Below are positions 25,601 through 63,846 of a DNA stretch of 64,000 bases, piece after piece (the first letter of the stretch is position 1; each line of letters starts with the position of its first letter). The notes beneath the pieces were generated by a model. The model was not told the origin of the DNA. It made no database searches and worked only from the letters and a program-made list of their open reading frames with translations. The DNA is from a phage. Position numbers and translations under genes: made by a program. The DNA is taken from the NCBI GenBank assembly GCA_025284135.1, contig GCA_025284135.1_3646.1; one strand, 5' to 3'.

Positions 25601-26467
25601 TATCACCAGGGTTCAAACGCTGACGCACTTGTAATAGCTCGTCACTACCCTGCTCCGTACGCTGGTACGCTGCTTGTTTACAAAAACACAGCCAACAGAC
25701 CGCAAGGTTGTGTGCAGGAATACATTACCTATTTTGGTGACAGATATACTCGTGCTGGTAACTACGTTGGCGATGTCTTTACTTGGGAAGAATGGAGACA
25801 CGATGCTGGTAAGGGCATTCAGTTAAGACCTAATTACAATTTCGGTGAAAACAGTACTCAGCTGGAAATTCATGTTGGTGCTAATGGTCTTCCATCCAAC
25901 GCCGATAACTTACCTACCAACAGTGCTATACTCCATTATTGGGGTAACGGCAGTGCAGGGACTCGTCCAAACGTGTTAGAGTTTAAGGTTCTTGACGAGT
26001 CTCAATCGGCTTATGTATGGCATTGCGGTACCTTGCCGGATAAATCAAGATATCTTTCTGTAAACGGTGCTGTGAATTGCACATCTGTCAATCAGAGTTC
26101 TGACAGAGACCTGAAAGATAACATATCTGTTATTCCTGATGCGTTAGAAGCTATCCGGAAGATGAAGGGTTATACTTACACTCTTAAAGAGAACGGTATG
26201 CCTTATGCAGGTGTTATAGCACAAGAAGTGCTTGAAGCGTTGCCGGAAGCAGTTAGCTCTTTCGTGCAAAGAAAGGAAATCCCAAACCCTGATCAAGATG
26301 GAACTCCTTTGATAACAGAGGAAAGATTCTACAGCGTGGATTACGCAGCCGTAACAGGCTTGCTTGTCCAGGTTTGCAGGGAACAGGACGATAAAATAAC
26401 CGCCCTTGAGGAGCAGGTTAAAAAATTGACGGAGGTTGTTACTGGGTTGCAAGAGAAACTGAAGTAA
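22655..26467 (+). CDS. tail fibre/tailspike protein with C-terminal intramolecular chaperone (peptidase S74-like) domain
   Basis: 1270 aa; N-terminal anchor domain shared with 19351 gene; C-terminal 122 aa (SDRDLKDNISVIPDALEAIRKMKGYTYTLKENG...AGVIAQEVLEALPEAV...coiled coil) matches the auto-cleaving chaperone domain of endosialidases and T5 L-shaped fibres. Confidence 0.8.
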   Translation: MADIKVVRIESLPATTAVTEDDYLVVQQPDLTRRVKIGDVVHVDGTVSHVISFKEGGKLNGPMDFAYFEEEDLYLRWKGEFPHTVPALSSPYSDGGITDAAWMVYTDPSLREELESTIGASMIMTAEGQSVQDVMDVTVQTANDAKALAQRVDFGTVHTVGDVIHLDNFVGPAVIEEGRTTNYPSAAAGEKFLNGVVSRRDTTTVDGIFRGATSGAMYTIAVTNGVATTKRIALRDEFKRLEANNPTRTVIRAGDDLNTAGYLQLDATGRWGMWNQQTASWQPLAIEQGGTGARDAAGVRINIGAFYKQRAALEPNFNINNLTGNQDGVYYQPMTAYATEANGYPAGSGAGHLIVWQNNANGGTGCRQEYYPFSNVDVWYLRTYQANTNQWTAWQPMVRPRNDDTFRSHIGLGKNNSPAFGHLYLAQYSGDVKSASGILHGDKYNTDGVLEHGYRIYSEVRNDNKAWLTIHLHKGAKGSETHRYLGFREDGVLDCPKYMQVGDLNGQMANWGLGEWIRSSGAERGFWGSKKAAKMVIWDGGMDEQGEGTLEWGVYNNRKAKWEPLPIACGGTSARTVGDAQAQFRIPLAAGTRPYVNLPRTAAMQDGKYYPIIVRTDPNFAATIGTDLTIVTRSSSGGDPMNCATLQCHYRTGGWTDRGDSFQGVINFYQNEKAILGCVSPTRGKQEYVAFYVEARAFPVTVYAGATVIEVSTREVDWQVGNVTGNQDGVKFCAPLASADLSLAIKGDDVTNTRPLVEFKGTSGFYTGGGTMWHYLGTPERYAVMSKMNMPKVELWADGIDYICPGSQTTRKALFSNAGFQAASEGTEDLINNTFTSKCGNGARLQGQAEFRSTPEAGQVIVRDVVGTAHKFYNFNKDGTFFPPGGYVCQTGADWNNQFGNTNPSKIMAGNVNGPEGSMVVGGLSVAFSGNYAFQMAGRLDQLYTRSIEGGNHRAWNKVIQHRGQGLGTEDLNNYDGSREGFYHQGSNADALVIARHYPAPYAGTLLVYKNTANRPQGCVQEYITYFGDRYTRAGNYVGDVFTWEEWRHDAGKGIQLRPNYNFGENSTQLEIHVGANGLPSNADNLPTNSAILHYWGNGSAGTRPNVLEFKVLDESQSAYVWHCGTLPDKSRYLSVNGAVNCTSVNQSSDRDLKDNISVIPDALEAIRKMKGYTYTLKENGMPYAGVIAQEVLEALPEAVSSFVQRKEIPNPDQDGTPLITEERFYSVDYAAVTGLLVQVCREQDDKITALEEQVKKLTEVVTGLQEKLK
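26096..26467 (+). other. intramolecular chaperone auto-processing domain (S74-like) within fibre gene
   Basis: S-D-x-x-L-K signature (QSSDRDLK) with predicted cleavage before the Ser; ends in a coiled-coil segment. Confidence 0.7.
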
Positions 26468-26474
26468 CTGTTTT

Positions 26475-26504
26475 GCCCTCGCTTCGGCGGGGGCTTTTTG
26501 TTTG
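26475..26504 (+). terminator. intrinsic terminator (UUCG tetraloop)
   Basis: GCCCTCGC-TTCG-GCGGGGGC followed by TTTTT. Confidence 0.75.
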
Positions 26505-26506
26505 TA

Positions 26507-26535
26507 TTGCGTATTAACTCAAAATCTGGTAAAAT
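26507..26535 (+). promoter_or_regulatory. sigma70-type promoter, extended -10 (TTGCGT-N17-TGgTAAAAT)
   Basis: Immediately downstream of terminator; shared GGTAAAATA motif. Confidence 0.5.
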
Positions 26536-26566
26536 AACTATCATGATTGTTTAACCTGGAGGCACA

Positions 26567-27157
26567 ATGTTTTTATGGGAAAGGCCTAGATACCTTCCAG
26601 ATATTAGATTGGAGCTGCTGGCAGATATTGTTACGTTTAAAAGTCCGTTTACAGGTAAAACGCAAAAAGTAACCTATGCCACACCTAACTGGAAAGGCAC
26701 TTTGACGGTTTCCAATATCAGCGAGTCACAGTTGCTAGAGCTTAAGAGCTTTGTTGATCAGGTGTATAAAGATGGAAACATCTTTCTTATTAAAACTTAC
26801 GGTCACTCAGTAACAGCTAATGAGCCAATCGCCCTTGGGCCTACTGGTAACGATGATTTTTTGAGGACGGTTGGGTGGGAGCCAAACAGAGACATAGCCA
26901 GAGTTGGGGATAAAATATCTGTCAATGATGAATTGAAAGTGGTAACAGCTCCAGTGCGTAGCGATGGTGTTGGGTCTGCTGTTATAAGCATATCTCCAAG
27001 ACTTAGAAAACCTATTGCCGCAGGGGACACTATGAAGATAATAACTCAATCCCCGAAGGGTAGGTTTCATATCAGAGATATTTATAAAATTAAGCAAAAA
27101 GTCGATGCTATGCAAAAAGGTGATAATATAGTTATCAACTTCTTTGAGGATTTCTAA
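26567..27157 (+). CDS. minor tail protein, lambda gpM-like (putative)
   Basis: 196 aa; segment WKGTLTVSNISESQLLELKSFVDQVYKDGNIFL resembles lambda gpM TYSVTLSVPREEATVLESFLEEHGGWKSFLW (recalled from memory); first gene of an M-L-K-J-like set. Confidence 0.45.
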   Translation: MFLWERPRYLPDIRLELLADIVTFKSPFTGKTQKVTYATPNWKGTLTVSNISESQLLELKSFVDQVYKDGNIFLIKTYGHSVTANEPIALGPTGNDDFLRTVGWEPNRDIARVGDKISVNDELKVVTAPVRSDGVGSAVISISPRLRKPIAAGDTMKIITQSPKGRFHIRDIYKIKQKVDAMQKGDNIVINFFEDF

Positions 27158-27710
27158 GATGATCAGAGCGCCATTAGATAATTTATTTCTTGAAAAGCTG
27201 GAGCTTGATGGTGTTGAGATCTTAATTGCTGCAAAGCTGGAGCTACCGACAGGAACTGTCAGGGTGTGCTCAGGCACTGGTGTTGTAGTAATTGAGGGGC
27301 AACATTTTATAGGGATAGGTGGGTCAGCAACATTAACCGCTGTGTCTGAGAAAGATGCCACCAACTTCGGATCTGTGGTAGCGACATTGAACGGGTTTGA
27401 TCCTAAGTATGTGGGTGATCTGCTGAAGACTGAGTATTCTGGTTGTCGTGCCACGTTGTACATTACCGCTATGGAGAATGGTCTGCCTGTTACAACTAAT
27501 GGCTTGTTTGACGGCCTTATAACAGATATGGCTATTCAGACGGGTGAGAATAGCGCTTTGTCCATATCCATCTCTTCCATCTTCAACAGTTGGTTAAGAG
27601 GTTTTCCTTATCGGTACACGGAGGAAAGCCACAGCTCAAGAAACGATAACGACAGATTTTTTAAATATGTGGATCAGGTGGCGAGCCGCCCGATCATTTG
27701 GGAGGTTTAA
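27144..27710 (+). CDS. minor tail protein, lambda gpL-like (putative)
   Basis: 188 aa; position between M-like and K-like genes; loose pattern similarity to gpL N-terminal region; overlaps neighbours by a few codons. Confidence 0.4.
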   Translation: MRISKMIRAPLDNLFLEKLELDGVEILIAAKLELPTGTVRVCSGTGVVVIEGQHFIGIGGSATLTAVSEKDATNFGSVVATLNGFDPKYVGDLLKTEYSGCRATLYITAMENGLPVTTNGLFDGLITDMAIQTGENSALSISISSIFNSWLRGFPYRYTEESHSSRNDNDRFFKYVDQVASRPIIWEV

Positions 27711-28135
27711 TGAGCACACATCCTCGTCTAGTGGACTGGCAAGAAAGATTGTGGAAAGTGTTTGACGAAGAGGCCACCATACCTTTTGAATGGGGATTCC
27801 ACGATTGTTGCACCTTTGCAGCTAAGTGTGTTGATGCCCAATACGGAACAGATTTTCTTTCTAACTTCGAAGGAACGTATAAAACAGAGTTGGAAAGCAA
27901 AAGATGGTGCATGCTCCGTTTCAAAACCACACACCTGCCTACTATTTTTGATCTCTTTATGACTCGGCTGGATACTCCTAAACAGGTTCAGCGTGGAGAT
28001 ATTGTCATTTTCGAAGGTCTGAACGGCCTCACCGCCGGTGTGTTCTGGAACAACCAGATTTGGGCGAAAGGTGATAAAGGGGTCTTTATGTTCGATATGA
28101 AAGATTCTATCGTTGTTGATGTCTGGAGGTATTAA
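27698..28135 (+). CDS. tail assembly protein with NlpC/P60-like motifs (lambda gpK-like, putative)
   Basis: 145 aa; candidate catalytic Cys in WGFHDCCTF and downstream GDIVIFEG...GVFW pattern typical of NlpC/P60 folds; directly upstream of J-like gene. Confidence 0.45.
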   Translation: MGGLMSTHPRLVDWQERLWKVFDEEATIPFEWGFHDCCTFAAKCVDAQYGTDFLSNFEGTYKTELESKRWCMLRFKTTHLPTIFDLFMTRLDTPKQVQRGDIVIFEGLNGLTAGVFWNNQIWAKGDKGVFMFDMKDSIVVDVWRY

Positions 28136-31100
28136 TGCCAATTGCAATGATTGATAACATCGTTGCTTCTGCAAGATCTTCAAGTTATGACTGGAACGCA
28201 TCCAAGGCAGCTCTGGCTGACAGCCTGAACACTGTTACCACCAGAACTCTGGATAAGATTTTTGAGGGCAACAAATCTTACAGAAGTCAGCAAGATAGAC
28301 AAAAGCTTCTCAGATCTTCTGCTGCACCCTGCTCTGTAGTGTATGGAAAGACACGCACATCTGGATTGCTTGCGTTTTTGGAGCAGGATAGAGACAAAAC
28401 CCTCCATTGTGCTATTGTTCTTGCCAATCACCCTCTGGAAGGTATAGAAGATATACTTATCGACGGTAATCCGATTTCCTCGTATGGAGATCTGGTATCG
28501 TGGGAGCTACATAACGACAGAAAAACATCTGATCCTTTCATGGGTACACACTGCCCATCATGGTCACCAGACATGATAGGTAGAGGGATCAGTTGGCTAC
28601 GTGCCAGCTTCAGGTTTGACCCTAACAAGTTTCCTTTTGGGTTGCCAAACGTTACACTTGTCAAGGTTGGTAAAAAATGCTATGATCCTCGTATCAGTAA
28701 AGAGGTGTATACCAATAACGCGGCCTTGGTGATTCTGGACTATTTAAGAACGTACCTTAAATGTCCTGACGAAACCATCAACTGGGAGTCCTTCAAGGAG
28801 GCTGCCAACATATGCGATGAGGCGGTAAAAAACGCTGACGGAACCAGTGAGCGCCGTTACACAATTAATGGCGAGTTCGATATGGATGAGGCTCCAGCAA
28901 GTATTATGGCAGAAATGCTGAAAGCTTGTGGAGCAGATCTCAGCTATGTAGCTGGTAAGTATGGTTTGCTGGTCGGTGCATATTATGGTCCGGCAACAAT
29001 GACACTGAGTGAGGATTGTGTCTGCGGTGAGGTAAAGATCTATCCGGAAGCCTCATTTGACAAAAGATCCAACACAATAACTGGCAGATTCACTAGTCCG
29101 ACCAAAGGGTATTCTGAAACAGATTTTCCATCAGTGTTTGTCCCAGAGTGGATAGAGAAGGATGGAGAAAGAAAGATAATCGATATAGACTATCGCTTTG
29201 TTACCAGTCCTTATCAAGCTCAACGTGTTTCTGCAATCTTCCTAAGACGTGCCAGAGCTGGCAGGATTATTGAAGTCACCTGCAATATGCGAGGTTTTAA
29301 ATTTAAGCCTGGCCGTTACGTTACAATGAATCTTCCAAGTATTGGTATAGTAGGCCAAGAAATGAGGGTTCTTGAATGGGAGTTCACCAAAAAGGGTGGT
29401 GTCAAGGTAAAACTTCGTCAAGATGCTAAAGAGTGGAATGATGCCACAGGGCAACTTCCGGATTCTGGTGATGTAGATATTCCGATATCTCCATCTGGTG
29501 TAGCTCAACCGCAAAACTTCAGATACTCCGTCCTCCAAGCTGGGGAAATAACTCACGGTGTTCTGGCTTGGGACAACGTTGGGACTTACGCTCAAAATAT
29601 TGTGCAGGTAAGAAAGAACGGAGAGATTGTTTGGACAGCACAGACAGTTGAGCAGTTTGTCCGAGTAGAAGGCTTGACCAAGGGGTCATACACAGCAACC
29701 GTGGTTGCAACATCTTATAAAGGTGGTGTATCTCCAGAAGCGTACTGCGAGTTTAACATTCAGGCACCTGAAGCTCCTGTTTCTGTAGAGGTTAAGCAGG
29801 GATACTTTGCTATCACCTTGATTCCACACAGCAGGGATTTAGCAAGTGTAAGCACCCAGTATGACTTTTGGACATCTGGTATGACAAGGTTGCCCGACAC
29901 CAGCGATGCAACCGTTACTTCAAACGCCACCCGTATGGGTGTTGGTTCAACTTGGACATCCGAAGGTCTGCAGAACGATAAGGTTTATTATTGGTATATT
30001 CGAACCACAAACGCTTTTGGTAGCTCTCAGTTTGTAGAGTGTGCTGCACGCTGCTATACCTCCATTGAGGATTTGATGCCTCAGATAGATGCTGAATTCA
30101 AAAAGACAGAAACTTATAAAGAGTTGATGAGCACTTTGGATTCCTCTATTGAAGAGGTTGAAAATCGTGTCACAGAACTTAACAGGTACATGGATGGTAG
30201 AGTTGACGAGGCTTTTGACCACATGGAAGGTGAGTTCTCTAGAGTAGACAAGCTGTATGCTCAGTTGGGAGATAGGGTTGGAATATTCATCCAAGAAACC
30301 CACGACAACTTCCAGGACGTTAATGGAACGCTTACCACTCTAGATCAGAAACTGGTAGCCACTCAGAACAAGTTTGCAGATGATCTTTCTAAAGAAAGTG
30401 GCAAGCTTGCTTCTCTAATCCAGACCACTAACAAAGCTACAACCGATCTGTTAAATCAGAAAACTGAAGCTTTGGACGAGAAGATTGTTTCAACCAGGGG
30501 TGAGTTGGAAGATGCTTTAGCGCAGGAAAGCTCTGAGCTGAACTCCCTGATTGTATCAACCAATAAAACGACTACAGATCTCCTTAATCGGAAAACCGAG
30601 GCTTTAGACAATAAGCTGACGGCAACGAAAGGTGAGTTGACCAACAATCTGCAGAATGAGAGTGCTAAACTATCGTCCTTGATTGAGTCAACCAACAAAT
30701 CCACCACTGATCTTCTTAATAAGAAAACAGAGGCGTTGGATGAAAAACTGGTTGCTGCACAGGGCGAGTTGACTGAGCAGATCGGAGATGTTGAAAAAGG
30801 CTATCTGGCTGGTGATAAGAGCCTAGAGGGCAAGTTGAATACTCAAAGATCTGAGTTGGATGCGAGCATTCTGAGCACTAACCAGGCCACTGTGGACTTG
30901 CTGAACAGAACTTCTGAGACTCTTGACCAGAAGATTAGCCAGACCAACGCCACAGTGTCCAAAAACTACACCACGCTTGATGGTAAGATAAACACCGCCA
31001 AGTCTGATCTTAATACGTTGATTTCTACCACCAACAAGGCCACAACTGACCTGTTGAATCAGAAAACGGCAGCTTTGACTGAGCAGTTAACCACTGCTAA

Positions 31101-51717: not shown

Positions 51718-53199
51718 TTACTTAGCGTACTCGATTAATTCCACAGTTTTCCCAAAGCTCGGGATATAATTTTTATTATACCCTTCGGTGAGAACCCACA
51801 AAGTATCGTACTTTTTCCACTTGTTGTCAACAGCCTTTTGTTCAAAGTTATGCTCAAAGTATAGGTCGGTCAGGACGATGACATCTTTTGCATTCGGTAT
51901 GTTGGCATCCAAATACTCGAACACGCAAGCAGCTGTTGTGCCCCATGTTGAGTGGACCTCATAGTTGATCATCTCGTCTATGTTGCCGCGAGTATATACT
52001 TTAACCTCTCCGACTTCAGTTGACCAACAGAACATTGTAACCTTAAACTCTTTATACAGGTTGCACAATCCGGTGATTTCATTGAACATTTTCTTTAAAG
52101 TTCTTTGAGAGATCGAGCCAGAAACGTCTAAAGCCACCACAATATCTATAGTGTTTTCCGGATTACGACCCGGAACAATAACGTGTTGGTTCTTGTTTAT
52201 AGCTCCAACTTTTCGCATTGTGCTGGTCAAAGACCCAGATCGGCGACCAGGTTTTCTGTAGGTCAGTTCGGCCTTTCGTTTAGACAACATGCGTTGCTTG
52301 ATGATGTCTATATAATTGATTACAGGCTTACCTCTGTTCTTGACAAACTCACGAACCGCCTCAGGGCAACGACCTCCGGAAGCTTGCATTGCTGCCTCCA
52401 GCATGTCACCAGAGTCCTGCATGGCCTGATCTTTATCAGATTGGCTGATTACAGGTTGTGGCTGATCATACCCCATAGCCTTTCCAAGATCATCACTAGT
52501 GCCACCGTTCCCACTCATGTGATCATCGGTTTGTCGCTTATCACCTTGAGAGTTCTCACCTTTACCGTTCTTACTTTTACCGTTATTTTGATCTCTTTGC
52601 TTATCAAGAACTGCATAAACGTTCTCAGCAATCCATCCATGAAACTTCATGTCGCAGTAGCAGCTGGCTAAGAAGCCAAAAGGCTTACCTTTTACGAACG
52701 TAGTGCTTTTCCCTTTTGGGAAGAAAACACAAGGAGGCTTGCTAAAGTCAACCACAAGGCCTGTGTTGATGACGTGATCACAAGCAATGTTGAACAGTTC
52801 CGGTTCAAAGCTTTTACCACGGACCAGGTGATCACAGATAATATGTCCCACCTCATGTGACAGAAGAAAGGCCACCTCTTTCACAGATTTGGGGGAATAG
52901 AAAACCTCAGCCATCTCAAACTGCCCGTCAGTTAGAGAAGCCTTAAGAATAGCCTTGCGTTCATCAGCCAACCCCATAATGAACTCAGGACTGTAATAGA
53001 TGCGTTTATGGTCGGTTGCCATGGTGGAGCACCATGTGTGGTTTTCTACGAACTGCAACCCTGACAGTAGCGTGCCATAAAACGGCAGCTTTTCAAGAAG
53101 ATACATACGTGCAGCTTGCAACATTCTCAGGGCATCATCTTTCTGTGAGGCAATGATTTCTGAACTTCTGCTATCCATTAAAACTCCAGAAGGGGCCAT
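51718..53199 (-). CDS. putative zinc metallopeptidase domain + von Willebrand factor A (vWA) domain protein (DUF2201-like)
   Basis: 493 aa; HExxH motif in LLSHEVGHIICDH with downstream ACDHVINTGL; C-terminal vWA-like MIDAS motif DxSGS in VVALDVSGSIS; more likely start is the second in-frame ATG at 53178 (GGAG SD) because the first ATG sits inside a GC hairpin. Confidence 0.65.
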   Translation of the reverse strand: MAPSGVLMDSRSSEIIASQKDDALRMLQAARMYLLEKLPFYGTLLSGLQFVENHTWCSTMATDHKRIYYSPEFIMGLADERKAILKASLTDGQFEMAEVFYSPKSVKEVAFLLSHEVGHIICDHLVRGKSFEPELFNIACDHVINTGLVVDFSKPPCVFFPKGKSTTFVKGKPFGFLASCYCDMKFHGWIAENVYAVLDKQRDQNNGKSKNGKGENSQGDKRQTDDHMSGNGGTSDDLGKAMGYDQPQPVISQSDKDQAMQDSGDMLEAAMQASGGRCPEAVREFVKNRGKPVINYIDIIKQRMLSKRKAELTYRKPGRRSGSLTSTMRKVGAINKNQHVIVPGRNPENTIDIVVALDVSGSISQRTLKKMFNEITGLCNLYKEFKVTMFCWSTEVGEVKVYTRGNIDEMINYEVHSTWGTTAACVFEYLDANIPNAKDVIVLTDLYFEHNFEQKAVDNKWKKYDTLWVLTEGYNKNYIPSFGKTVELIEYAK

Positions 53200-53211: not shown

Positions 53212-54255
53212 TTATTTAACGTGTTTGAAAATACCTGCCAACTCGGTCATTGTCATGCGGGTGGTCTTCATAAGATCTGTCATAGCTTTCTCCATAATTG
53301 GAGATACTACCATAAAGTTTCCTTTAGTGAAACCTTTATTCCAGTCGGTCACCAACAGTGGTTTAAGTCCAGCTCCGAGACGTTCACCAGTTAAAGCACA
53401 GCATTTGCGAATATACGAACTCTTAAATTGGCTGAACGACAGATCAACTTTCATACCTGCATCGTAGAACGTTTGACAATAGAAAGTGTAAGCCTTAGCA
53501 ATCTCAACATCATCAGGCAGTGCAGGAACTTCTTCTGCAATACCCTCTTCGACCTCCTGAGGATCTTTTTCCTCTTCAGAGTTCTGTTCTTCAATTTCTT
53601 CTGTCACAGTCTCGTTTACGATGTCTGAAATGTGTTTGTTGGCTGCACGATCAGCCATGAAATTTTTAAAGTCCTGCATTGGTGACATATCTTCCTCCTC
53701 TTCGTCAAATAGTGCTAGTTTATCTTCTTCTGTCCCGTATTGCAAGATGAAATCTTCAAAAGTATAATCACCTTTCAATTTCTCCATACGCTCTTCGCTC
53801 AGGTGGAGCATCATCTGCTGGACAATTTTTCGATCAGTTTTGTCTTTTATCAAGATTGCAGTCTTTTTATCTACCAGACAGTCCTTCAGAGCGTTGCACC
53901 TCAATCCCACCACACAACAATTATCAATTGAGTAAGGACCTTCATCATCTATCCGCTCCAGAGATGGATAGAAAGGATTTCCCAGCCCGTTTTCATCTGT
54001 GTGCATGTCAAAAGGTATAAGGGTGTAATCGCACACTCCATCTCCTAAAAGTTTTTTACCAAATAGGAGGTATTCTTCCCATGACAGGTTGAACTCTATA
54101 TCCCGTTTCCGTGCATTATTCTGTTTGCGTCTATATTTTTTGAGCAGGCGCTCTAACTCTTCTGGTGTATAATATTTTTCAAGATTCATGAGTTGTCTCT
54201 TGTGCTCTGTAGGTGAAGAAATCTTATCAAGTGCCTCAACAGATGTCAACCTCAA
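53212..54255 (-). CDS. HNH-like endonuclease candidate with acidic central linker
   Basis: 347 aa; segment SLERIDDEGPYSIDNCCVVGLRCNALKD resembles the R/H-I-D...N...CN-x-x-K core of HNH/His-Me finger nucleases; track start is TTG, so the true start is uncertain. Confidence 0.3.
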   Translation of the reverse strand: MRLTSVEALDKISSPTEHKRQLMNLEKYYTPEELERLLKKYRRKQNNARKRDIEFNLSWEEYLLFGKKLLGDGVCDYTLIPFDMHTDENGLGNPFYPSLERIDDEGPYSIDNCCVVGLRCNALKDCLVDKKTAILIKDKTDRKIVQQMMLHLSEERMEKLKGDYTFEDFILQYGTEEDKLALFDEEEEDMSPMQDFKNFMADRAANKHISDIVNETVTEEIEEQNSEEEKDPQEVEEGIAEEVPALPDDVEIAKAYTFYCQTFYDAGMKVDLSFSQFKSSYIRKCCALTGERLGAGLKPLLVTDWNKGFTKGNFMVVSPIMEKAMTDLMKTTRMTMTELAGIFKHVK

Positions 54256-54262
54256 AAACGTG

Positions 54263-54291
54263 TTGACTTTACCCTAAATCCACGATATAGT
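54263..54291 (+). promoter_or_regulatory. sigma70-type promoter (TTGACT-N17-TATAGT) in divergent intergenic region
   Basis: Hexamers with 17-nt spacer; lies inside the track-predicted 5' extension of ORF 54290, supporting the downstream ATG 54332 as the start. Confidence 0.5.
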
Positions 54292-54331: not shown

Positions 54332-55243
54332 ATGGCAAATCTTAACAGCTTTAGCACTCGGTGGAAACAAGATATCACAACCAATCTCTCAGCAGGCGAT
54401 ATCCTTTCTGCAATTTACGAGGCTTTGGATGATAAAGCTACTTCAAAAGCGGTTTGTACCAACCCACTAATTCCTGTAGTGATGAAGGTTATTGAGCGTA
54501 GATTGGTATCTGGGTCTGATAAGTGGACATATTTAGATAATGAAGGACACACCTATTCCAATGGGTACGTCGATATAAAAGTAGAATACGCGGTATCATA
54601 CCGCCGGAGCGGTTCTGTAACTTTCAACTTCTCTGGAGGTTTTCGATCTCTGGCTACCTCACCTTTTGTTTCCTCAGAGGAGAAGTATGAGCTTCCATTT
54701 CTTTGGATGATGGCTAACGCGACAGGAAAAACCCCCGTTAGCATCCGAGTAAAATACAACTACAACGGATCTAGTAAGATCTATGCCGAGAGTGTCTCAG
54801 CAAGTTTTTATTTTGTGATGGGGGATGGAATCCTCAAACATATAAAGATGTGCGATATGCATGATGTTATAAATGAAGTGACTGATAAGAATGTTCTGGT
54901 GAAGGATCTCAACAATTTTTATACACCCGGAGACTATTACGTCAGCCGTCCACTGTGCATCTTTAATGCCGCACACCCTCTAGGTGAGTATTTGATCGCC
55001 AATAGCGATATTGCCAATAACCGCTTCGAGGTAGCAAGAGTACAGAATGAGGTATTGACATCTTGCAAGAGCGGTGATAAGTTTACCGAAGAAGAGATGG
55101 GTGTTTTAGAAATGATGGGATATAAGTGTAGCCTTTGGGTAGATGAGGTGTTTAATGATTGCATCTATGGACAGGATATTTACCCATTAAAGAAGTATAC
55201 TGATTCCAGTTTAATATTTGACTATGATGAAGTCATGTGGTAG
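54332..55243 (+). CDS. hypothetical protein (303 aa)
   Basis: ATG 54332 with CAGGAG SD; first gene of plus-strand operon; no motif recognised. Confidence 0.45.
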   Translation: MANLNSFSTRWKQDITTNLSAGDILSAIYEALDDKATSKAVCTNPLIPVVMKVIERRLVSGSDKWTYLDNEGHTYSNGYVDIKVEYAVSYRRSGSVTFNFSGGFRSLATSPFVSSEEKYELPFLWMMANATGKTPVSIRVKYNYNGSSKIYAESVSASFYFVMGDGILKHIKMCDMHDVINEVTDKNVLVKDLNNFYTPGDYYVSRPLCIFNAAHPLGEYLIANSDIANNRFEVARVQNEVLTSCKSGDKFTEEEMGVLEMMGYKCSLWVDEVFNDCIYGQDIYPLKKYTDSSLIFDYDEVMW

Positions 55244-55496
55244 TGTATATTATGTTGGTGAGAATGTTCAGGCAGATAGTGTGTGGAAATCCATTAAGTC
55301 CACCACCGATGATGCCTTTCTGAGCGGGTTATGCTTTCCCAGCCCAGGGGACACTCTCCCTTACCCTGGAGATTTTGTTGTCAACAAGATGGACGGTTAT
55401 ACCGTGTGCCTGATGGTTGAAAAAATCTTTTTAGACACTAGACACAATCACCGTCTTGTGTTAAAATTTCAAGAATGTAAAATGACAATTGCCTAA
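55218..55496 (+). CDS. hypothetical protein (92 aa)
   Basis: Track ORF with TTG start overlapping previous gene; real start probably an internal ATG. Confidence 0.3.
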   Translation: MTMMKSCGSVYYVGENVQADSVWKSIKSTTDDAFLSGLCFPSPGDTLPYPGDFVVNKMDGYTVCLMVEKIFLDTRHNHRLVLKFQECKMTIA

Positions 55497-55509
55497 GGAG
55501 ACCTTGCCG

Positions 55510-55866
55510 ATGTCTAAAGTTACTTATCGTGCAGCTATTTACTGCAATGAACACCCAATCTATAATGATGGTCACTGCCTTTTTAAAGAAAATCAATTGG
55601 GCTGTATTGTCCTCCCTGATGAAGGTGAAGGTTATCTGATTGCGTTGACAGGGTTTGAACCTGAAGCTCTGGAAGCCAATCTTGACTACCTGGTAGAAGA
55701 GGGTGCTGCAGACCTGGTTGCCAATGGCCTATCCGTAAGCCTTGATGAAGTGGAGCGCTTCATGGGCAATTACCGTGTAGTGCGTGAGTTTACTATCGAG
55801 GTGGAAACTCCAGAGTGGGGTAGCACTGAAACTAATGCCGAAGAAAAAGAAGAGGAGGTAGAATAA
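55510..55866 (+). CDS. strongly acidic small protein (DNA-mimic/anti-restriction candidate)
   Basis: ATG 55510 with AAGGAG SD (track gives TTG 55489); about 27 Asp/Glu vs about 7 Lys/Arg; acidic tail EEKEEEVE. Confidence 0.45.
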   Translation: MSKVTYRAAIYCNEHPIYNDGHCLFKENQLGCIVLPDEGEGYLIALTGFEPEALEANLDYLVEEGAADLVANGLSVSLDEVERFMGNYRVVREFTIEVETPEWGSTETNAEEKEEEVE

Positions 55867-56123
55867 TGAAAGTGCAGATCTTGACTAATGCCGAGAAGAT
55901 GTTTATTGAAGATACACCTTTTGAAGCTGGTGAGCTACAGTTCGTTTATTTTGTTGACTTAGATAAGGTGTTCCCTGCACTGAATCTGGGTCTGGATGAA
56001 GTTCCTCATAAGGTTTTGTGCCAAGTTGTTCGTGCCTTAGCGGCAGAGGGGGAGTTCCACACCCTTCAAGATATCCAGACCTACGGGTATCTTGAACTAC
56101 AACGAGAAGAAGAGGTGGACTGA
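55866..56123 (+). CDS. acidic small protein (85 aa)
   Basis: Start overlaps previous stop (TAATGA); net charge about -11. Confidence 0.45.
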   Translation: MKVQILTNAEKMFIEDTPFEAGELQFVYFVDLDKVFPALNLGLDEVPHKVLCQVVRALAAEGEFHTLQDIQTYGYLELQREEEVD

Positions 56124-56125
56124 TA

Positions 56126-56506
56126 ATGGCTCAGTGGAAGACAACAGTTGACCTTCATGATCAGTGGTTAGGACGCATCACTGAAGACGGGAAGTTAGTT
56201 GAGTGGGACAATAAGCATGTTAGCGAGTTGGCAAGTATTGTGGCTGGCAAGTTACGATCCAAGTTCCCTGAACAACTGGATCCTGATAGTTCAAAGTTCG
56301 ATCCTGAGTTGGAGGATGTTGTATACTACTTCGACACCGTGGATGACTACGATGCGTGGTTTGCAGCACGGGAGCTTTACCCACAAGGATCTGCTATGCG
56401 CCAGATGGAAGAAGATTATCCTCCGTGCGAGCAATTCAATAGTGCAATGACTTGCCTCTACGATTGGGCAGATAAGAACCTTGTCTGGATTCGGACTGCA
56501 TTTTAG
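56126..56506 (+). CDS. acidic small protein (126 aa)
   Basis: Asp-rich (DTVDDYDAW); net charge about -13. Confidence 0.45.
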   Translation: MAQWKTTVDLHDQWLGRITEDGKLVEWDNKHVSELASIVAGKLRSKFPEQLDPDSSKFDPELEDVVYYFDTVDDYDAWFAARELYPQGSAMRQMEEDYPPCEQFNSAMTCLYDWADKNLVWIRTAF

Positions 56507-56550
56507 TGGGCAGGAATGGCGGCAAGGATGCTGCTTAAGGAGTAGTAGAG

Positions 56551-56820
56551 ATGTTATACCAGCAATATGAACTTCGTGCAGAAAAAGAGTTAAATTTTGA
56601 CAAAGATATTCACAGATATTATTATGGGAAAGTTAGAGGGCAAGCAAGAAAGTGTACTCCAACACTCTTTTATGCCAGCAGACGACTAGCGCCAGAAGAG
56701 GCAACAGCAGAAAGGGTTGCGTACAACTGGAGAGTCACGTATGATATTGACAGATCCGATGTGATATCTGTTTTGGAAAACTTTGAAAACACTTACACAC
56801 AAGTAGAGGACTTTTACTAA
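56551..56820 (+). CDS. hypothetical protein (89 aa)
   Basis: ORF immediately upstream of and overlapping the AAA+ ATPase start. Confidence 0.4.
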   Translation: MLYQQYELRAEKELNFDKDIHRYYYGKVRGQARKCTPTLFYASRRLAPEEATAERVAYNWRVTYDIDRSDVISVLENFENTYTQVEDFY

Positions 56821-58004
56821 TGTCAAGAAACGTATTTGAAAGTGGTCAAATCACTGTCCGTGAGTTGCCAGCTATCATTCAGTTTGCCCAGCGTCATAAC
56901 CGATCTGTCCTGATTTTAGGACCAATGGGCGTGGGAAAGAGCCGGGTGATGAAGCAGATCGCAGACAATATGTTCGGTGAGCGAGATGACAACTTGGTTG
57001 ACGTGCGGTTGTCAGATAAAGATCCTGCCGACTTATCTGGGCTACCTATCCCTGTAGAAGCGGATGGAACTACACGTACAGTGTTTGCAATTCCAGAATT
57101 TTGGCCTGCGGATCCTGACTGGAGCGGAATTATCTTTCTGGATGAGCTCACTCATGCAGATAACTACCTGCAAAAGGTTGCAATGCAAATTATGCTCGAC
57201 CACAAGTGCGGTACCTATGCATTCCCTAAAGGTTCTGTTTTTGTGGCTGCTGGTAACCGTTCTACAGATGGTGCGGTTCTTTCGGCGCTCGAAGCCCCTC
57301 TGGCTAACCGTTTTATCATTGTAGAAGTTACAAGCAATGCAGAGGTGTTTATTGAGGACTACGCATTCCTTAATGGGGTGCATTCCTCTGTAATTGGATA
57401 TCTGAAAAGAGTTCCATCAGCTATCGATAATTATGAGGCTATGGCTGAGATTAATTGTCCATCTTTTGCCACACCGCGATCTTGGGTTGCTGCATCTGAT
57501 ATCTTGCACGATTTTGACAGCGGCATTATTTCTGACGCTATGGCCCGTGTTCTTCTGCAAGGTGCTATTGGTCACACTGCAGCGGTAGAGATCTGGACTT
57601 ACCACACCAAGAAACGCAACTTACCGGAAATCGGTCGGATTATGGCAGGAGGTTGCAAAGAATATGTAGGTCCTAAACAGCCAGACATCTTGTGGATTCT
57701 TGGATCTGAAGGTTGTATCGCTATTCGTAATATGATGGAAAATGCAAGTATCTCCGACGAAGATCTTGTTAGCTGTGTGGCAAACTTCCTCGATTTCCTT
57801 TGGGGAAACTTCAAGGATGAGAACCGAGATTTTGTATTCTCAGTCTTTATGGCGATGATGAAACCTAATGCCTTAGGAAATGCCTTGCTTATCGGTAAAG
57901 GTCGTGACAAGATTGTTGCTCAGCTGATCAAAGCATACCCAAACCTGATGAAGATTGTAAAAGAGTTTGGTGAAGAGTTTAGCGCCATTTTGGCTAAAGC
58001 TTAA
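56820..58004 (+). CDS. AAA+ ATPase, MoxR/AAA_5-like
   Basis: 394 aa; Walker A GPMGVGKS, Walker B IIFLDEL, sensor-like AAGNRSTDG; domain order typical of MoxR/CbbQ/CobS-type ATPases. Confidence 0.75.
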   Translation: MSRNVFESGQITVRELPAIIQFAQRHNRSVLILGPMGVGKSRVMKQIADNMFGERDDNLVDVRLSDKDPADLSGLPIPVEADGTTRTVFAIPEFWPADPDWSGIIFLDELTHADNYLQKVAMQIMLDHKCGTYAFPKGSVFVAAGNRSTDGAVLSALEAPLANRFIIVEVTSNAEVFIEDYAFLNGVHSSVIGYLKRVPSAIDNYEAMAEINCPSFATPRSWVAASDILHDFDSGIISDAMARVLLQGAIGHTAAVEIWTYHTKKRNLPEIGRIMAGGCKEYVGPKQPDILWILGSEGCIAIRNMMENASISDEDLVSCVANFLDFLWGNFKDENRDFVFSVFMAMMKPNALGNALLIGKGRDKIVAQLIKAYPNLMKIVKEFGEEFSAILAKA

Positions 58005-58013
58005 GGAGGTTGT

Positions 58014-58394
58014 ATGGCTAAAGTAGGTAAGCGGGGAAACTACCTAGTGGTATTGACCGAGGAGCCCGAGAAGGAGTACGAATGCAGCTCCACTTGCGTG
58101 ATCGATATCCGAGAAAAAGATGTAGATGAAATCTGGTTTGAAATATTGGACGCTTGCGATAGCAGTGATTATTTCTTCATCTATGTCAACGATAAGGCTG
58201 GGTTCTTCCATGACGACGGAGAGTTGCCGTATGAAATCTATGAACTTGTAGAGGCTTGCCATCGTGGAGATGCGGAGTTGTTTGGCTTACGGCTGAAAAG
58301 CGGTAAATTCTTCTATCAAGATGAGTGCATGAATCTTCATAACTTTGTAGAGGGAACTTGCAACGATGGAGAGATTCTGGCACACTACGATTAA
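58014..58394 (+). CDS. strongly acidic small protein (126 aa)
   Basis: About 29 Asp/Glu vs about 11 basic residues; followed by terminator. Confidence 0.45.
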   Translation: MAKVGKRGNYLVVLTEEPEKEYECSSTCVIDIREKDVDEIWFEILDACDSSDYFFIYVNDKAGFFHDDGELPYEIYELVEACHRGDAELFGLRLKSGKFFYQDECMNLHNFVEGTCNDGEILAHYD

Positions 58395-58404
58395 TTTCTA
58401 AGAC

Positions 58405-58433
58405 CACCCCGCTTCGGCGGGGATTTTCTATTT
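58405..58433 (+). terminator. intrinsic terminator (UUCG tetraloop)
   Basis: CCCCGC-TTCG-GCGGGG followed by ATTTTCTATTT; same hairpin core as at 32290. Confidence 0.75.
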
Positions 58434-58442
58434 GGAGTTATT

Positions 58443-58943
58443 GTGAAAATTAAGATCTTTGCTATTATTTTGAGCGCATTTTTATCGCTGCCTGTTGTTG
58501 CAGCACCAAAACAAAAAGTATACCATACTTGCAAGCCATCAGATACTAAGGAAAACATTCTAGCATGCAATATCTACAGGGAAGCTAGAGGAGATGGCAC
58601 GATGGGTATGCTGGCATCTGGGTTTGCCACCCTAAACAGAAAATCTCATCCCAAATACCCAGACACTATAAGAAAGATTGTCTACCAACCTAATCAGTTT
58701 TCGTGGACAAACTACGGCAAAACTTTTAAGGTGACAGAAAAAGATTCATGGGATCACGCTAAAAGTCTTGCAAAGATGCTTCTAAAGGTCTATAATAACA
58801 ACCATGTTGCATACATGGCTATGGATATAACAGGTGGAGCAACACACTACCATACAACCAAAGTACGACCGAAATGGGCAAAAAAGATGCAGAGGACAGC
58901 TCAATTCGGGAGCCATATCTACTACAAGGAGCGCAATAAATGA
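58443..58943 (+). CDS. secreted cell wall hydrolase, SleB/CwlJ-type (Hydrolase_2-like); endolysin candidate
   Basis: 166 aa; GTG start with GGAG SD; N-terminal signal peptide (MKIKIFAIILSAFLSLPVVAAP); motifs ACNIYREARGDG, GMLASGFATLNR, YPDTIRKIVYQPNQFSW match the conserved blocks of SleB-family hydrolases. Confidence 0.7.
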   Translation: MKIKIFAIILSAFLSLPVVAAPKQKVYHTCKPSDTKENILACNIYREARGDGTMGMLASGFATLNRKSHPKYPDTIRKIVYQPNQFSWTNYGKTFKVTEKDSWDHAKSLAKMLLKVYNNNHVAYMAMDITGGATHYHTTKVRPKWAKKMQRTAQFGSHIYYKERNK

Positions 58944-62138: not shown

Positions 62139-63508
62139 TGGAAAAAGGGCAGTATGATGTAGGCACAGATGCTGCCCTCGTTGCAATCATGAGCGGTGAG
62201 AATGTCTTCGTTTCAGGACCTGCAGGTTGTGGGAAGACGTATCTCATCAACATGATCCAGTCAATGTATGGAGACTCTTGCATAACGGTTGCCCCGACAG
62301 GGGTAGCCGCTTTAAACGTTAATGGAGCAACAGCACACCGAACCTTCGATCTTGCAGCAGGTGTGAGCATGGAGTCAGACTGGACCGCAATAAGGGCAAA
62401 AACAGCAAAGCCTTTGAAAAGCAAGGCATTTACCATCCTAATTATCGATGAAATCTCTATGATCCGTGCTGATAAGTTTATAGAGATGGATAGGAAACTC
62501 CGCTTCCTTCGAAAAAATGACAAACCTTTCGGAGGCATACAGGTCATATTGTTTGGCGATTTTTACCAGGCACCTCCTGTTGTCTCTTCTATGGAGAAGG
62601 AAGCCTACTTCAACTTCTACCATACGGACCTGTGTTGCTATACCGAATCTTGGAAAGAGCTTGACCTCCACAACATAGCCCTAGTAGATCAGTTCCGACA
62701 GGAGTCTATTCGATTTGCCACAATGCTCAACTGTGTTCGTGAGGGTCGTCGCATAAAAGAGGTTGTAGCAGAACTTAATGCTCGCTGTTACAAAGGCGGC
62801 GTACCAACAGATGCTCTCACAATTTGCGCCACCAACAAACAAGCAGAGGAAGTAAACAGAAGGTTCTATGATGCCATCAACGCCCCAGAGAAGGTATACA
62901 CTGGTGAAATGAAGGGTAAGTTTCCCTCCACCCTGCCAGTTGAGCAGGAGATGAAGTTGAAAATTGGTATGAAAGTTATGATAACCGCCAACGATGTTGA
63001 CCCGACGCACAAGGTACCTTATTATGTTAACGGAACACGTGCCACAATTGTTAAATTTAAGAACAAGGCGGTGGTGGTAGAGCTTGAAGATGGAACACAG
63101 GTTGACATAGAGCAGAGGTTGTGGGAGAATAACGAGTATAAGCCATCTCAGAGATACAACATTGCAGAAAGGAAGATGGAGAAGTTTATAGAGAGGGTAG
63201 TGATTGGGTCATACAAGCAACTTCCTCTGAAATCTGGGTACGCCGTAACATCTCATAAAAGTCAAGGGCTTACGCTAGATTGTTACAACCTAGACCTTGG
63301 AAAGAACGGAGCTTTCTCTCCTGGGATGACGTATGTCGCTTTGAGTAGAGTTAAGACAATACAAGGAATAAACTTGTTGCGTCCACTAAGAGAAGTTGAC
63401 ATTATTGTTGACCCGCGAGTCGTAGAGTTTTACAATACAACATTCCCTGACTTAGACAAAATTGTCAGGAAAGATTTTGAAACCAGAGCAGAAGAGGGGG
63501 ACGTATGA
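62138..63508 (+). CDS. SF1B DNA helicase, PIF1/Dda/RecD-like
   Basis: 456 aa; Walker A GPAGCGKT, motif Ia APTGVAA, Walker B ILIIDEISM, GGIQVILFGDFYQAPPV, AVTSHKSQGLT, YVALSRV. Confidence 0.85.
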   Translation: MEKGQYDVGTDAALVAIMSGENVFVSGPAGCGKTYLINMIQSMYGDSCITVAPTGVAALNVNGATAHRTFDLAAGVSMESDWTAIRAKTAKPLKSKAFTILIIDEISMIRADKFIEMDRKLRFLRKNDKPFGGIQVILFGDFYQAPPVVSSMEKEAYFNFYHTDLCCYTESWKELDLHNIALVDQFRQESIRFATMLNCVREGRRIKEVVAELNARCYKGGVPTDALTICATNKQAEEVNRRFYDAINAPEKVYTGEMKGKFPSTLPVEQEMKLKIGMKVMITANDVDPTHKVPYYVNGTRATIVKFKNKAVVVELEDGTQVDIEQRLWENNEYKPSQRYNIAERKMEKFIERVVIGSYKQLPLKSGYAVTSHKSQGLTLDCYNLDLGKNGAFSPGMTYVALSRVKTIQGINLLRPLREVDIIVDPRVVEFYNTTFPDLDKIVRKDFETRAEEGDV

Positions 63509-63846
63509 GTTTGTGGAGAAATATCGTTAACTACGTGTGTGGCAATCCGACTCCTGAAGAGAAGGATGTTGTGATTCACGATTTTACTAAAAGATCTCGT
63601 GAAAAAGATCTACTGCTAACAAAGGTGACTGATAAAGATCCTGCAGTAGGGGACTGGGCAGGTTTTGCGTTTACATCGGACAAATACACCTTTAACAAAG
63701 GTGACTACCTTGTTGTAGATTTTAACGAAGACATTGAGGGTGCTGAACCTTACTATCAAACCCTTATTGTTGCAGGGTGTGTTAATCTCTCTGCAAGCAT
63801 GCACAGTTTGATTCTTTTTGAGCTTGACTCTGAAGACCTTGAGTAG
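63505..63846 (+). CDS. hypothetical protein (113 aa)
   Basis: ORF overlapping helicase stop by 4 nt; no motif. Confidence 0.4.
   Translation: MSLWRNIVNYVCGNPTPEEKDVVIHDFTKRSREKDLLLTKVTDKDPAVGDWAGFAFTSDKYTFNKGDYLVVDFNEDIEGAEPYYQTLIVAGCVNLSASMHSLILFELDSEDLE

Follow-up and report, generated by a model that had tools for sequence, protein, structure and literature searches.

Four small acidic proteins around a MoxR-type ATPase gene of an rV5-like coliphage: possible ATPase accessories and genus-restricted genes

The stretch of DNA analysed here (the window, 64,000 nt) is from an rV5-like coliphage of the genus Vequintavirus. Few coliphages are isolated as often as those of the rV5 type, which are considered for therapeutic use, and their early genes are little characterised. 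A sequence-only reading of this window had drawn attention to four small acidic open reading frames at positions 55510-55866, 55866-56123, 56126-56506 and 58014-58394. These coordinates are correct, and the four correspond to annotated CDS of phage rV5, namely ORF8, ORF7, ORF6 and ORF3, respectively. All four are on the + strand, are endowed with good Shine-Dalgarno sequences and are each annotated as "hypothetical protein".

The same reading placed the four genes in an operon driven by a promoter at 54263, and we indeed found there, on the + strand, a sigma70-like promoter (54263..54291, TTGACT-17-TATAGT) at the head of a series of tightly spaced genes that ends, just after ORF3, with a strong intrinsic terminator at 58407-58422 (58407..58432 in all, + strand, CCCCGCTTCGGCGGGG followed by a T-run). 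A second sigma70-like promoter (54249-54221, - strand) is divergent from the first one; promoter consensus matches are no more numerous in the region than expected from shuffling. The operon, entirely on the + strand, begins with a homologue of rV5 gene 10 (54332..55243), which is called "fucosyltransferase" in some records yet has no Pfam match, and the 3' end of which is changed in this window by a 10-bp deletion. It is followed by a homologue of rV5 gene 9 (55224..55496), encoding a near-neutral protein of 90 aa (pI 6.0), then by ORF8 (118 aa, net charge -20, pI 4.12), ORF7 (85 aa, net -11, pI 4.32), ORF6 (126 aa, net -13, pI 4.33), ORF5 (56551..56820; 89 aa), which is not acidic (net -2), the gene of a MoxR-like AAA+ ATPase of 394 aa (56820..58004) and finally ORF3 (126 aa, net -18, pI 4.34, 6 Cys). 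The stop codon of ORF8 overlaps the start codon of ORF7 (TAATG), that of ORF5 overlaps the start codon of the MoxR gene, and only 9 nt separate the stop codon of the latter from the start of ORF3. Within the operon, a further sigma70-like promoter on the + strand (56597..56625, TTGACA-17-TATTAT, matching the consensus at 11 of 12 positions) bears the name P4 in the rV5 annotation; it may allow MoxR and ORF3 to be transcribed independently. This is the first sigma70-driven operon of the phage, and its expression is presumably early. Downstream of it lie rIIA, rIIB, a PIF1 helicase gene and the start of an adenine methyltransferase gene, as had been described, and the divergent operon contains the homologue of rV5 gene 12 (51718..53199, - strand), which encodes a DUF2201_N metallopeptidase plus VWA-like protein.

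Small ORFs lacking homologues outside one genus could be frames left open by chance in a phage genome of moderate AT content, and we considered this explanation for some of the four. It has practically no chance of being right. When compared with 7-8 relatives, all four ORFs are under purifying selection, with dN/dS values of 0.01-0.23, and they are therefore real genes. The values per gene are 0.00-0.06 for ORF3, 0.01-0.07 for ORF6, about 0.1 for ORF7 and 0.09-0.23 for ORF8, those of the MoxR ATPase being 0.02-0.13. In every ORF synonymous changes far exceed non-synonymous ones (21 versus 1-2 in ORF3 and 16 versus 1 in ORF6), which refutes the idea of chance frames. Moreover, the reading frames are preserved without interruption in over 110 genomes and have good ribosome-binding sites.

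Strong acidity had been put forward as the special trait of these proteins. The net charges that we computed agree with the earlier estimate of roughly -11 to -20, with pI values of 4.12-4.34, and the four ORFs have the lowest pI among the 66 ORFs of the window. However, at the scale of one whole Vequintavirus genome they rank only 10th, 15th, 17th and 19th of 202 ORFs. In a genome of this genus about 10% of the ORFs are as acidic, which makes about 20 candidates at least as acidic as the four; several exceed them, for instance a protein of 113 aa with a net charge of -26, and further runs of acidic genes are found elsewhere in the same genome. The acidity of the four proteins is not exceptional in this phage, whose small non-structural proteins are as a rule strongly acidic, and we did not find any named anti-restriction gene among the ten most acidic ORFs of the genome. 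Their charge per residue is -0.17 for ORF8, -0.14 for ORF3, -0.13 for ORF7 and -0.10 for ORF6, Asp and Glu together represent 20-23% of the residues, and ORF8 ends with an acidic C-terminal tail (EEKEEEVE). Nearly all homologues keep a net negative charge. By alignment column, the acidic character is maintained in 15 of 27 acidic columns of ORF8, 17 of 29 of ORF3 and 7 of 25 of ORF6, and in ORF8 and ORF3 the acidic columns are identical less often than the other columns.

No recognisable motif had been noticed in these proteins, and our searches of Pfam, PHROGs and the PDB likewise led to no named family. The Pfam scan gave no match at E <= 0.1, and at E <= 0.01 each ORF matches in PHROGs just its own family of unknown function (12908, 13124, 6318 and 12370). 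The profiles of Ocr (PF08684, phrog_2568) and ArdA (PF07275) did not match any of the four, in conditions where T7 Ocr, used as a positive control, was recovered with E-values of 1.3e-64 (Pfam) and 2.5e-57 (PHROGs). A PDB sequence search with the four single sequences returned nothing significant, the solved structures of Ocr and ArdA being presumably among the entries searched. With the ORF6 profile, the best PDB match was Mediator subunit 29 (E = 0.014), which we judged to be due to chance. By BLASTP among the four proteins and T7 Ocr, we observed neither paralogy nor similarity to Ocr; as far as sequences can tell, the four proteins are unrelated to one another. They belong to very narrow families, with 4-8 close clusters per ORF in 5.8 billion proteins, and a full HMMER scan with the ORF8 profile yielded 2 matches in 1.84 billion representatives. 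Because the families are so narrow, AlphaFold2 was run on near-single-sequence input and gave poor models of mixed alpha/beta type for ORF8 (pLDDT 56) and ORF3 (pLDDT 51), and fold searches from these low-confidence models returned only noise. In the literature, we did not find a function for rV5 gp3, gp6, gp7 or gp8, nor for the phage MoxR/DUF2201 pair.

The composition of the four proteins had been likened to that of Ocr and ArdA. Ocr (gp0.3) of phage T7 is an all-helical DNA mimic that inhibits type I restriction-modification and BREX systems, and ArdA proteins, which are acidic too, inhibit type I restriction-modification by imitating DNA. ORF8 resembles Ocr, a strongly acidic early product of 117 aa with an acidic C-terminal tail, by its size, its tail and, as deduced from the operon, its early expression. 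However, Ocr is clearly more charged (net -28, i.e. -0.24 per residue, with 29% of Asp and Glu, versus -0.10 to -0.17 per residue here), it shares no sequence or profile similarity with the four proteins, and it is all-helical, whereas ORF8 and ORF3 are mixed alpha/beta in their low-confidence models. As for ArdA, none of the four has a match to its Pfam family, and ORF7 and ORF3 have no plasmid homologues, the lone match being a phage genome wrongly classified among plasmids.

Could one or more of the four, with ORF8 as the likeliest candidate, nevertheless be a DNA mimic or decoy with a new fold, which blocks type I restriction-modification, BREX or another DNA-binding defence early in infection, in the manner of Ocr? 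The charge of ORF8 (-20 over 118 aa), its acidic tail, its place in an early sigma70 operon and its evolution as accessory cargo are in favour of such a role, and so are its neighbours rIIA and rIIB, since these are experimentally identified counter-defence genes in the Vequintavirus EdH4. In addition, according to the BASEL raw data, Vequintaviruses carrying this operon plate with an efficiency (EOP) of about 0.06-1.1 on hosts with the type I systems EcoKI or EcoCFT_I, in spite of 10-17 and 4-6 sites, respectively. In the same data these phages are strongly restricted by EcoRI, EcoRV and type III systems, and phage Bas01, with just 3 EcoKI sites, has an EOP of about 1e-4 on EcoKI. However, the phi92-like phage Bas60, with 12 EcoKI sites, also escapes (EOP of 0.16-0.72 on EcoKI). 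As all matches to ORF8, ORF7 and ORF3 are within Vequintavirus, Bas60 should lack these genes, and the escape from type I systems is therefore not specific to them; for this reason we did not retain it as support for mimicry. The adenine methyltransferase encoded next door provides another explanation for it. The BASEL authors concluded that Vequintavirinae have no effective protection against restriction-modification, which speaks against an inhibitor; we did not retain this statement as a refutation either, since the raw EOP values reveal a selective escape from type I systems.

Other observations count against a mimic. The Ocr and ArdA profiles failed to match although the control worked, the charge density is below that of Ocr, the acidic positions of ORF8 and ORF3 are less conserved than the others, natural variants of ORF8 are tail-less or frameshifted, and the genome offers about 20 candidates that are at least as acidic. 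Taken together, our analysis yielded no positive evidence of DNA mimicry; it is possible for ORF8, and we consider it improbable that any of the four blocks defence in this way. An anti-restriction function shared by all four is weakened, because the proteins appear unrelated and because ORF6 and ORF3 seem to behave as MoxR companions and not as variable cargo.

The matches to ORF8 and ORF7 are confined to the genus Vequintavirus, and the genes found at equivalent positions in the sister genera encode unrelated proteins. ORF8 is an ORFan and the most variable gene of the operon. One divergent allele is only 69% identical, with saturated dS, inside flanks that are 92-99% identical; in phage YP-6 the copy is frameshifted; and the tails are variable, some natural variants lacking the acidic tail. 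This evolution is as expected of an accessory host-interaction gene. Several hallmarks of anti-defence accessory genes are found in ORF8, i.e. a narrow distribution, allelic diversity, location in an early operon and the vicinity of rIIA and rIIB, although they are not specific to anti-defence. ORF7 displays part of them, and the highly conserved ORF6 and ORF3 do not. Since they are genus-restricted early genes adjacent to rIIA/rIIB, and since ORF8 has divergent alleles, an anti-defence or host-interaction role is reasonable for ORF8 and, to a lesser extent, for ORF7. The four are small, acidic, located in an early operon and narrowly distributed, which makes them typical of the small early accessory ORFans of large lytic phages, among which they are catalogued. 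However, ORF6 and ORF3 differ from such ORFans in being unusually constrained and linked by position to one enzyme.

Indeed, ORF6 is present in at least four genera of Vequintavirinae (Vequintavirus, Mydovirus, Seunavirus and Avunavirus), in every case a short way upstream of the gene for MoxR, while the genes around it are replaced from one genus to another, often by genes of basic proteins. Its invariant residues, among which the motif FN..M...YDW.D...VW, are mostly aromatic and not acidic. ORF3 is missing in Mydovirus and Seunavirus; a homologue with 57% identity, present in a divergent phage contig (L024), directly follows the MoxR gene, and the genes downstream of it differ. This adjacency to MoxR amid neighbour turnover holds for ORF6 and ORF3, not for ORF8 or ORF7. 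In addition, ORF6 and ORF3 are under the same constraint as the ATPase, as judged by dN/dS. Since they are conserved beside MoxR and constrained like it, ORF6 and ORF3 are probably accessories of a MoxR/VWA module, as far as synteny and sequence evolution indicate.

Pairs made of a MoxR AAA+ protein and a VWA protein, such as RavA-ViaA, CbbQ-CbbO and NorQ-NorD, are known as chaperone systems. Like these pairs and their phage counterpart, gp24/gp25 of N4, the locus studied here has an operon centred on a MoxR-like ATPase with a DUF2201/VWA gene nearby. The DUF2201/VWA gene, here in the divergent operon, is the one that usually accompanies this ATPase: in ChuuTotoro and in N4-like phages the two are direct neighbours, and in phiTE a single gene lies between them. 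More than 800 phage records contain a homologue of the ATPase, among them those of jumbo phages and of N4-like phages, in which it is gp24. However, small acidic companions such as ORF6 and ORF3 are not among the described components of MoxR systems, and these two are lineage-specific additions. We did not find any homologue of ORF6 or ORF3 beside the ATPase in phiTE, ChuuTotoro or the N4-like phage PhAPEC7. As ORF6 is absent from these distant phages, it is not an obligate partner of MoxR. It should also be kept in mind that synteny inside one phage subfamily can stem from shared ancestry and not from function, and that the strong conservation of ORF6 and ORF3 would fit a conserved host target as well.

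All four could be ordinary early host-takeover proteins with separate targets (transcription, nucleoid or metabolism), without relation to defence or to the ATPase, their acidity being a compositional norm and their proximity to MoxR an inherited gene order. The abundance of equally acidic ORFs, in other runs too, the absence of relationship between the four proteins and with their positional equivalents in sister genera, and the many MoxR-bearing phages devoid of ORF6 and ORF3 are consistent with this explanation. The same is true of ORF5, which is located between ORF6 and MoxR and is not conserved across genera, having no detectable homology with the small gene that takes its place in other genera. 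On the other hand, it does not readily account for ORF6 staying beside MoxR while its neighbours turn over, for ORF3 doing so in L024 with different downstream genes, nor for a constraint on both genes as tight as that on the ATPase. We regard it as unlikely, though not far-fetched.

We favour, with a probability of about 45%, the view that the four proteins do not form one system, that ORF6 and ORF3 are tied to MoxR, that ORF8 and ORF7 are genus-restricted accessories and that none belongs to the Ocr or ArdA family. According to this tentative proposal, four unrelated small globular proteins would be produced from the first sigma70-driven, presumably early, operon of rV5-like phages. ORF6, upstream, and ORF3, downstream, would be evolutionarily locked to the MoxR-type AAA+ ATPase. 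They would serve as accessory subunits, be it as adaptors, regulators or clients, in a remodelling module made of MoxR and the VWA/metallopeptidase protein. ORF8 and ORF7 would bind host proteins via their acidic surfaces during takeover or counter-defence. Our data establish that the genes are real, as well as their charges, distribution, synteny, selective constraint and absence of homology to known families; from them we infer a physical association with MoxR and the existence of host targets. A bolder version is a long shot: ORF8 or another of the four would be the founder of a new-fold family of DNA mimics or decoys explaining the near-normal plating on type I hosts, or else ORF6 and ORF3 would be acidic adaptors aiming the MoxR and VWA-metallopeptidase machine at host complexes, possibly those of defence.

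On present evidence, the finding from which this analysis started is a correct but unexceptional compositional observation on catalogued hypothetical proteins. If one of them were an inhibitor of type I restriction-modification or BREX, it would represent a new anti-defence family and explain a phenotype already apparent in the raw BASEL values. If ORF6 and ORF3 were partners of MoxR, they would give an entry to the function of a MoxR/VWA module whose ATPase is this widespread among phages.

Two further points concern related phages. Deletions of gp004 and gp214 were reported to be viable in EdH4. From their genome positions, we take these genes to be probably not among the four studied here. 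In phiTE and ChuuTotoro, the VWA gene is followed by a gene of 126-127 aa, which we rejected as a counterpart of ORF3 (hhalign probability of 0.5%); the phiTE and ChuuTotoro proteins are homologous to each other.

The acidic small genes belong to a phage of the genus Vequintavirus (rV5-like E. coli myoviruses). Window 55400-58500 shares 97.5-99% identity with over 100 genomes of this genus, the top match being phage BP9 (99.0%; 97.7% for rV5). The four genes, numbered after rV5, are ORF8 (55510-55866), ORF7 (55866-56123), ORF6 (56126-56506) and ORF3 (58014-58394), and they flank ORF5 (56551-56820) and ORF4 (56820-58004), annotated as 'MoxR ATPase' in the rV5/BP9 records. All four are annotated CDSs in the rV5 and BP9 records as 'hypothetical protein', and have been catalogued as such since the rV5 genome publication. 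A previous sequence-only reading had their coordinates, strands and start codons right, and each has a good Shine-Dalgarno sequence. It also proposed an operon driven by a promoter at 54263, which fits the divergent sigma70-like promoters at 54263 (+) and 54249 (-), promoter P4 of the rV5 annotation within ORF5 (56597-56625, 11/12 consensus match) and a GC-rich hairpin with a T-run directly 3' of ORF3 (58407-58422). The co-located genes that it named were all found downstream, where we observed a SleB-type hydrolase, rIIA, rIIB, a PIF1-like helicase and the start of an adenine methyltransferase gene. At the ORF10/ORF9 junction (window 55216), 10 bp are absent relative to BP9 (TTACGCGGAG) that are present in 7/7 compared Vequintaviruses; with this deletion, gene 10 loses its final codons and stop, and gene 9 its GGAG Shine-Dalgarno, so that gene 10 ends ...LIFDYDEVMW and overlaps the start of gene 9 by 20 nt.

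In comparisons of the window with seven further Vequintaviruses and one relative from a metagenome, we observed that synonymous changes largely exceed non-synonymous ones in the four ORFs, with dN/dS of 0.00-0.06 for ORF3, 0.01-0.07 for ORF6, about 0.1 for ORF7 (0.41 in a single close pair that differs by only 5 substitutions) and 0.09-0.23 for ORF8; the values are 0.02-0.13 for the MoxR ATPase and 0.01-0.07 for the endolysin. This pattern indicates real genes and excludes spurious ORFs.

The four proteins had been proposed as candidate DNA mimics or anti-defence factors on the basis of net charges of about -11 to -20. The charges are correct (ORF8 -20, ORF7 -11, ORF6 -13, ORF3 -18); computed pI values are 4.12, 4.32, 4.33 and 4.34, respectively, the lowest among the 66 window ORFs, with 20-23% Asp+Glu. 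However, such acidity is not exceptional for this phage, since among 202 ORFs from about 125 kb of authentic phage sequence of BP9, called with the same crude ORF caller, the four rank only 10th, 15th, 17th and 19th by pI, and since the charge density of T7 Ocr, a DNA-mimic anti-restriction protein, is higher (net -28 over 117 aa in the T7 record, i.e. -0.24 per residue, versus -0.10 to -0.17). By charge per residue, ORF8 ranks 4th, ORF3 9th and ORF7 12th in BP9, ORF6 falling below the top 15. About one in ten BP9 ORFs is comparably acidic, several are more acidic, and there are other acidic gene runs (e.g. 24680-28458). The more acidic small ORFs of BP9, for instance one of 113 aa (net -26, 31% Asp+Glu; L018 10179-10520) and one of 116 aa (net -21; L018 24680-25030), all belong to PHROGs of unknown function and, on composition alone, are better Ocr-like candidates. 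Acidic products are also encoded elsewhere in the window: gene 11 (53212-54255, -), an Srd-like 'anti-sigma factor' of 347 aa (net -20) with a long Glu-rich central stretch, heads the divergent operon that also encodes the DUF2201/VWA metallopeptidase, and a small ORF at 63505-63846 (113 aa, net -11, pI 4.41), between the PIF1 helicase and the adenine methyltransferase, weakly matches a 'DNA ligase' PHROG family (1.2e-4).

The absence of a recognisable motif was borne out: no Pfam match at E <= 0.1 was obtained for any of the four, PDB sequence searches gave nothing significant, and the only PHROG matches were their own unknown-function families (12908, 13124, 6318 and 12370 for ORF8, 7, 6 and 3). 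T7 Ocr, used as a positive control, recovered its own families, namely 'DNA mimic ocr' in Pfam (1.3e-64) and 'ocr-like anti-restriction' among the PHROGs (2.5e-57). The four show neither paralogy among themselves nor resemblance to Ocr. The narrowness of the families left AlphaFold2 with alignments of 7 (ORF8) and 4 (ORF3) near-identical sequences, and neither model is reliable (mean pLDDT 56.4 and 50.7); both are mixed alpha/beta, with a disordered acidic tail in ORF8.

By distribution, ORF6 stands apart from ORF8, ORF7 and ORF3. In a tblastn search of 50,697 phage records, the latter three were found in 116-118 records only, all at >=80% identity, and are restricted to Vequintavirus. In a collection of 5.8 billion proteins, ORF8 gave 8 clusters (>=71% identity) and ORF3 gave 4 (the remotest at 57%), and a full HMMER scan of 1.84 billion representatives with an ORF8 profile returned only its own cluster and one fragment. 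Homologues of ORF6, at 25-39% identity, occur in Mydovirus, Seunavirus and Avunavirus. Among public records, an E. coli 'plasmid' from cattle faeces (PLSDB CP057073.1, 137.6 kb) is a Vequintavirus genome, 16 'Campylobacter phage' records (GenBank MG0656xx) are rV5-like coliphage genomes, and the closest record, that of BP9 (PP488543.1), appears chimeric from about 124,969 to its end (L020 24969-38295), with IS2 InsA and lambdoid prophage genes (integrase, exonuclease VIII, ea22) after rIIB instead of the window's helicase.

At all inspected loci the MoxR ATPase gene is preceded by ORF6, either directly or with a single small gene in between; the remaining upstream genes of the three other genera show no relation to ORF8, ORF7 or ORF9, and several encode basic proteins. 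Invariant columns of the ORF6 alignment (W14, W27, P48, L62, P100, F104, N105, Y112, W114, V120 and W121) are mostly aromatic or structural, only 4 invariant positions being acidic; the alignment profile had no credible match in the PDB. The sole distant homologue of ORF3 (57% identity), in metagenomic contig L024 (Logan SRR34397660_491192), starts right after a reading frame ending ...KQFGEEFRDLLAKA, which matches the MoxR C-terminus of the window, ...KEFGEEFSAILAKA, and the genes downstream of it differ from the window's. ORF3, like ORF6, thus tracks the ATPase. The same contig carries a 60-aa rIIB C-terminal fragment preceding a PIF1-type helicase homologue (768-1277) apparently broken within its Walker A motif (GPGGC|VDKDTEF...), as by an intein-like insertion.

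Homologues of the ATPase are present in 806 phage records, N4-like and jumbo phages included. Its gene adjoins the VWA gene in ChuuTotoro and in N4-like phages (gp24/gp25), and in phiTE the two are parted only by an inserted HNH endonuclease gene; the two therefore form a two-gene module. In the window the VWA partner is gene 12 (51718-53199, -), with a DUF2201_N putative metallopeptidase and a DUF2201 VWA-like domain. ORF6 and ORF3 are absent from phiTE, ChuuTotoro and the N4-like phages that have the ATPase, and are lineage-specific additions to the module. We found no paper giving a function to the phage MoxR/VWA module or to rV5 gp3, gp6, gp7 or gp8. A protein of 126-127 aa encoded 3' of the VWA/metallopeptidase gene in phiTE (L005 8299-8679) and ChuuTotoro (L025 6050-6433) may be another lineage-specific companion; the two are mutual homologues (E = 2e-14), unrelated to ORF3.

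ORF8 varies in another manner. In contig L022 (5001-5339) its allele has 69% identity with saturated synonymous sites, within flanking genes that are 92-99% identical, suggesting that alleles have been exchanged through recombination. In the phage YP-6 record (L013 3201-3559) a frameshift splits ORF8, and among natural variants some lack the acidic tail and others have a frameshifted basic one. Allelic turnover of this kind is typical of host-interaction genes.

The 'operon of acidic proteins' is thus a heterogeneous set. The most likely reading, to which we give a probability of about 0.45, is that ORF6 and ORF3 would be accessories of the MoxR/VWA-metallopeptidase module, because their adjacency is retained while neighbours turn over, their constraint equals that of the ATPase and the genes are tightly spaced, and that ORF8 and ORF7 would be genus-restricted accessory early proteins, with host proteins as their probable targets. 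It is also possible, if less likely, that the four are early takeover proteins with no relation to one another and that neither their acidity nor their position has a special meaning; their BP9 ranks agree with this as to acidity, and the retained adjacency of ORF6 and ORF3 to the ATPase speaks for the accessory reading. New in this analysis are the link between MoxR and ORF6/ORF3, the way ORF8 alleles behave, and the escape from type I systems in published raw data described below. Overall, the compositional observation is an ordinary one, offering a modest lead that can be tested.

It seems unlikely that the four include a new DNA mimic, for which ORF8 would be the first choice, that blocks type I restriction-modification or BREX. 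Published plating data bear on this reading. Among the Vequintaviruses of the BASEL collection, Bas50 and Bas52 have the operon (about 97.5% identity) and Bas51 has ORF6 (99.2%). The paper text describes these phages as lacking protection from restriction-modification, but the raw plating data (PMC8594841, files 5 and 7) are more nuanced. On type I systems, the efficiency of plating (EOP) of Bas50-52 is 0.06-1.1 with EcoKI (10-13 sites per genome; up to 17 in other BASEL Vequintaviruses, PMC8594841) and 0.12-1.1 with EcoCFT_I (4-6 sites), whereas Bas01, with only 3 EcoKI sites, falls to about 1e-4 on EcoKI (PMC8594841). Type II and III systems restrict strongly (sites for Bas50 and Bas51): EcoRI (30-42 sites) gives about 1e-4 to 5e-3, EcoRV (90-104) no plaques, EcoCFT_II (295-310) mostly no plaques, Bas51 being variable at <=0.06, and EcoP1 (208-225) about 0.02-0.04 for Bas50 and Bas52 and no plaques for Bas51. 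An inhibitor of the Ocr or ArdA type would give the same selective escape from type I. This escape does not, however, implicate the four proteins, because phi92-like Bas60 has 12 EcoKI sites yet plates at 0.16-0.72 on EcoKI (PMC8594841) and should lack ORF8, ORF7 and ORF3, which had no tblastn hit outside Vequintavirus; because the genome encodes about 20 candidates of equal acidity, and no named anti-restriction family is matched by any of them; and because a phage adenine methyltransferase is encoded nearby. Just 3' of the operon, rIIA and rIIB are genuine counter-defence genes, since the Vequintavirus EdH4 plates less well on lambda RexAB hosts when they are knocked down by CRISPRi-ART (PMC11879866).
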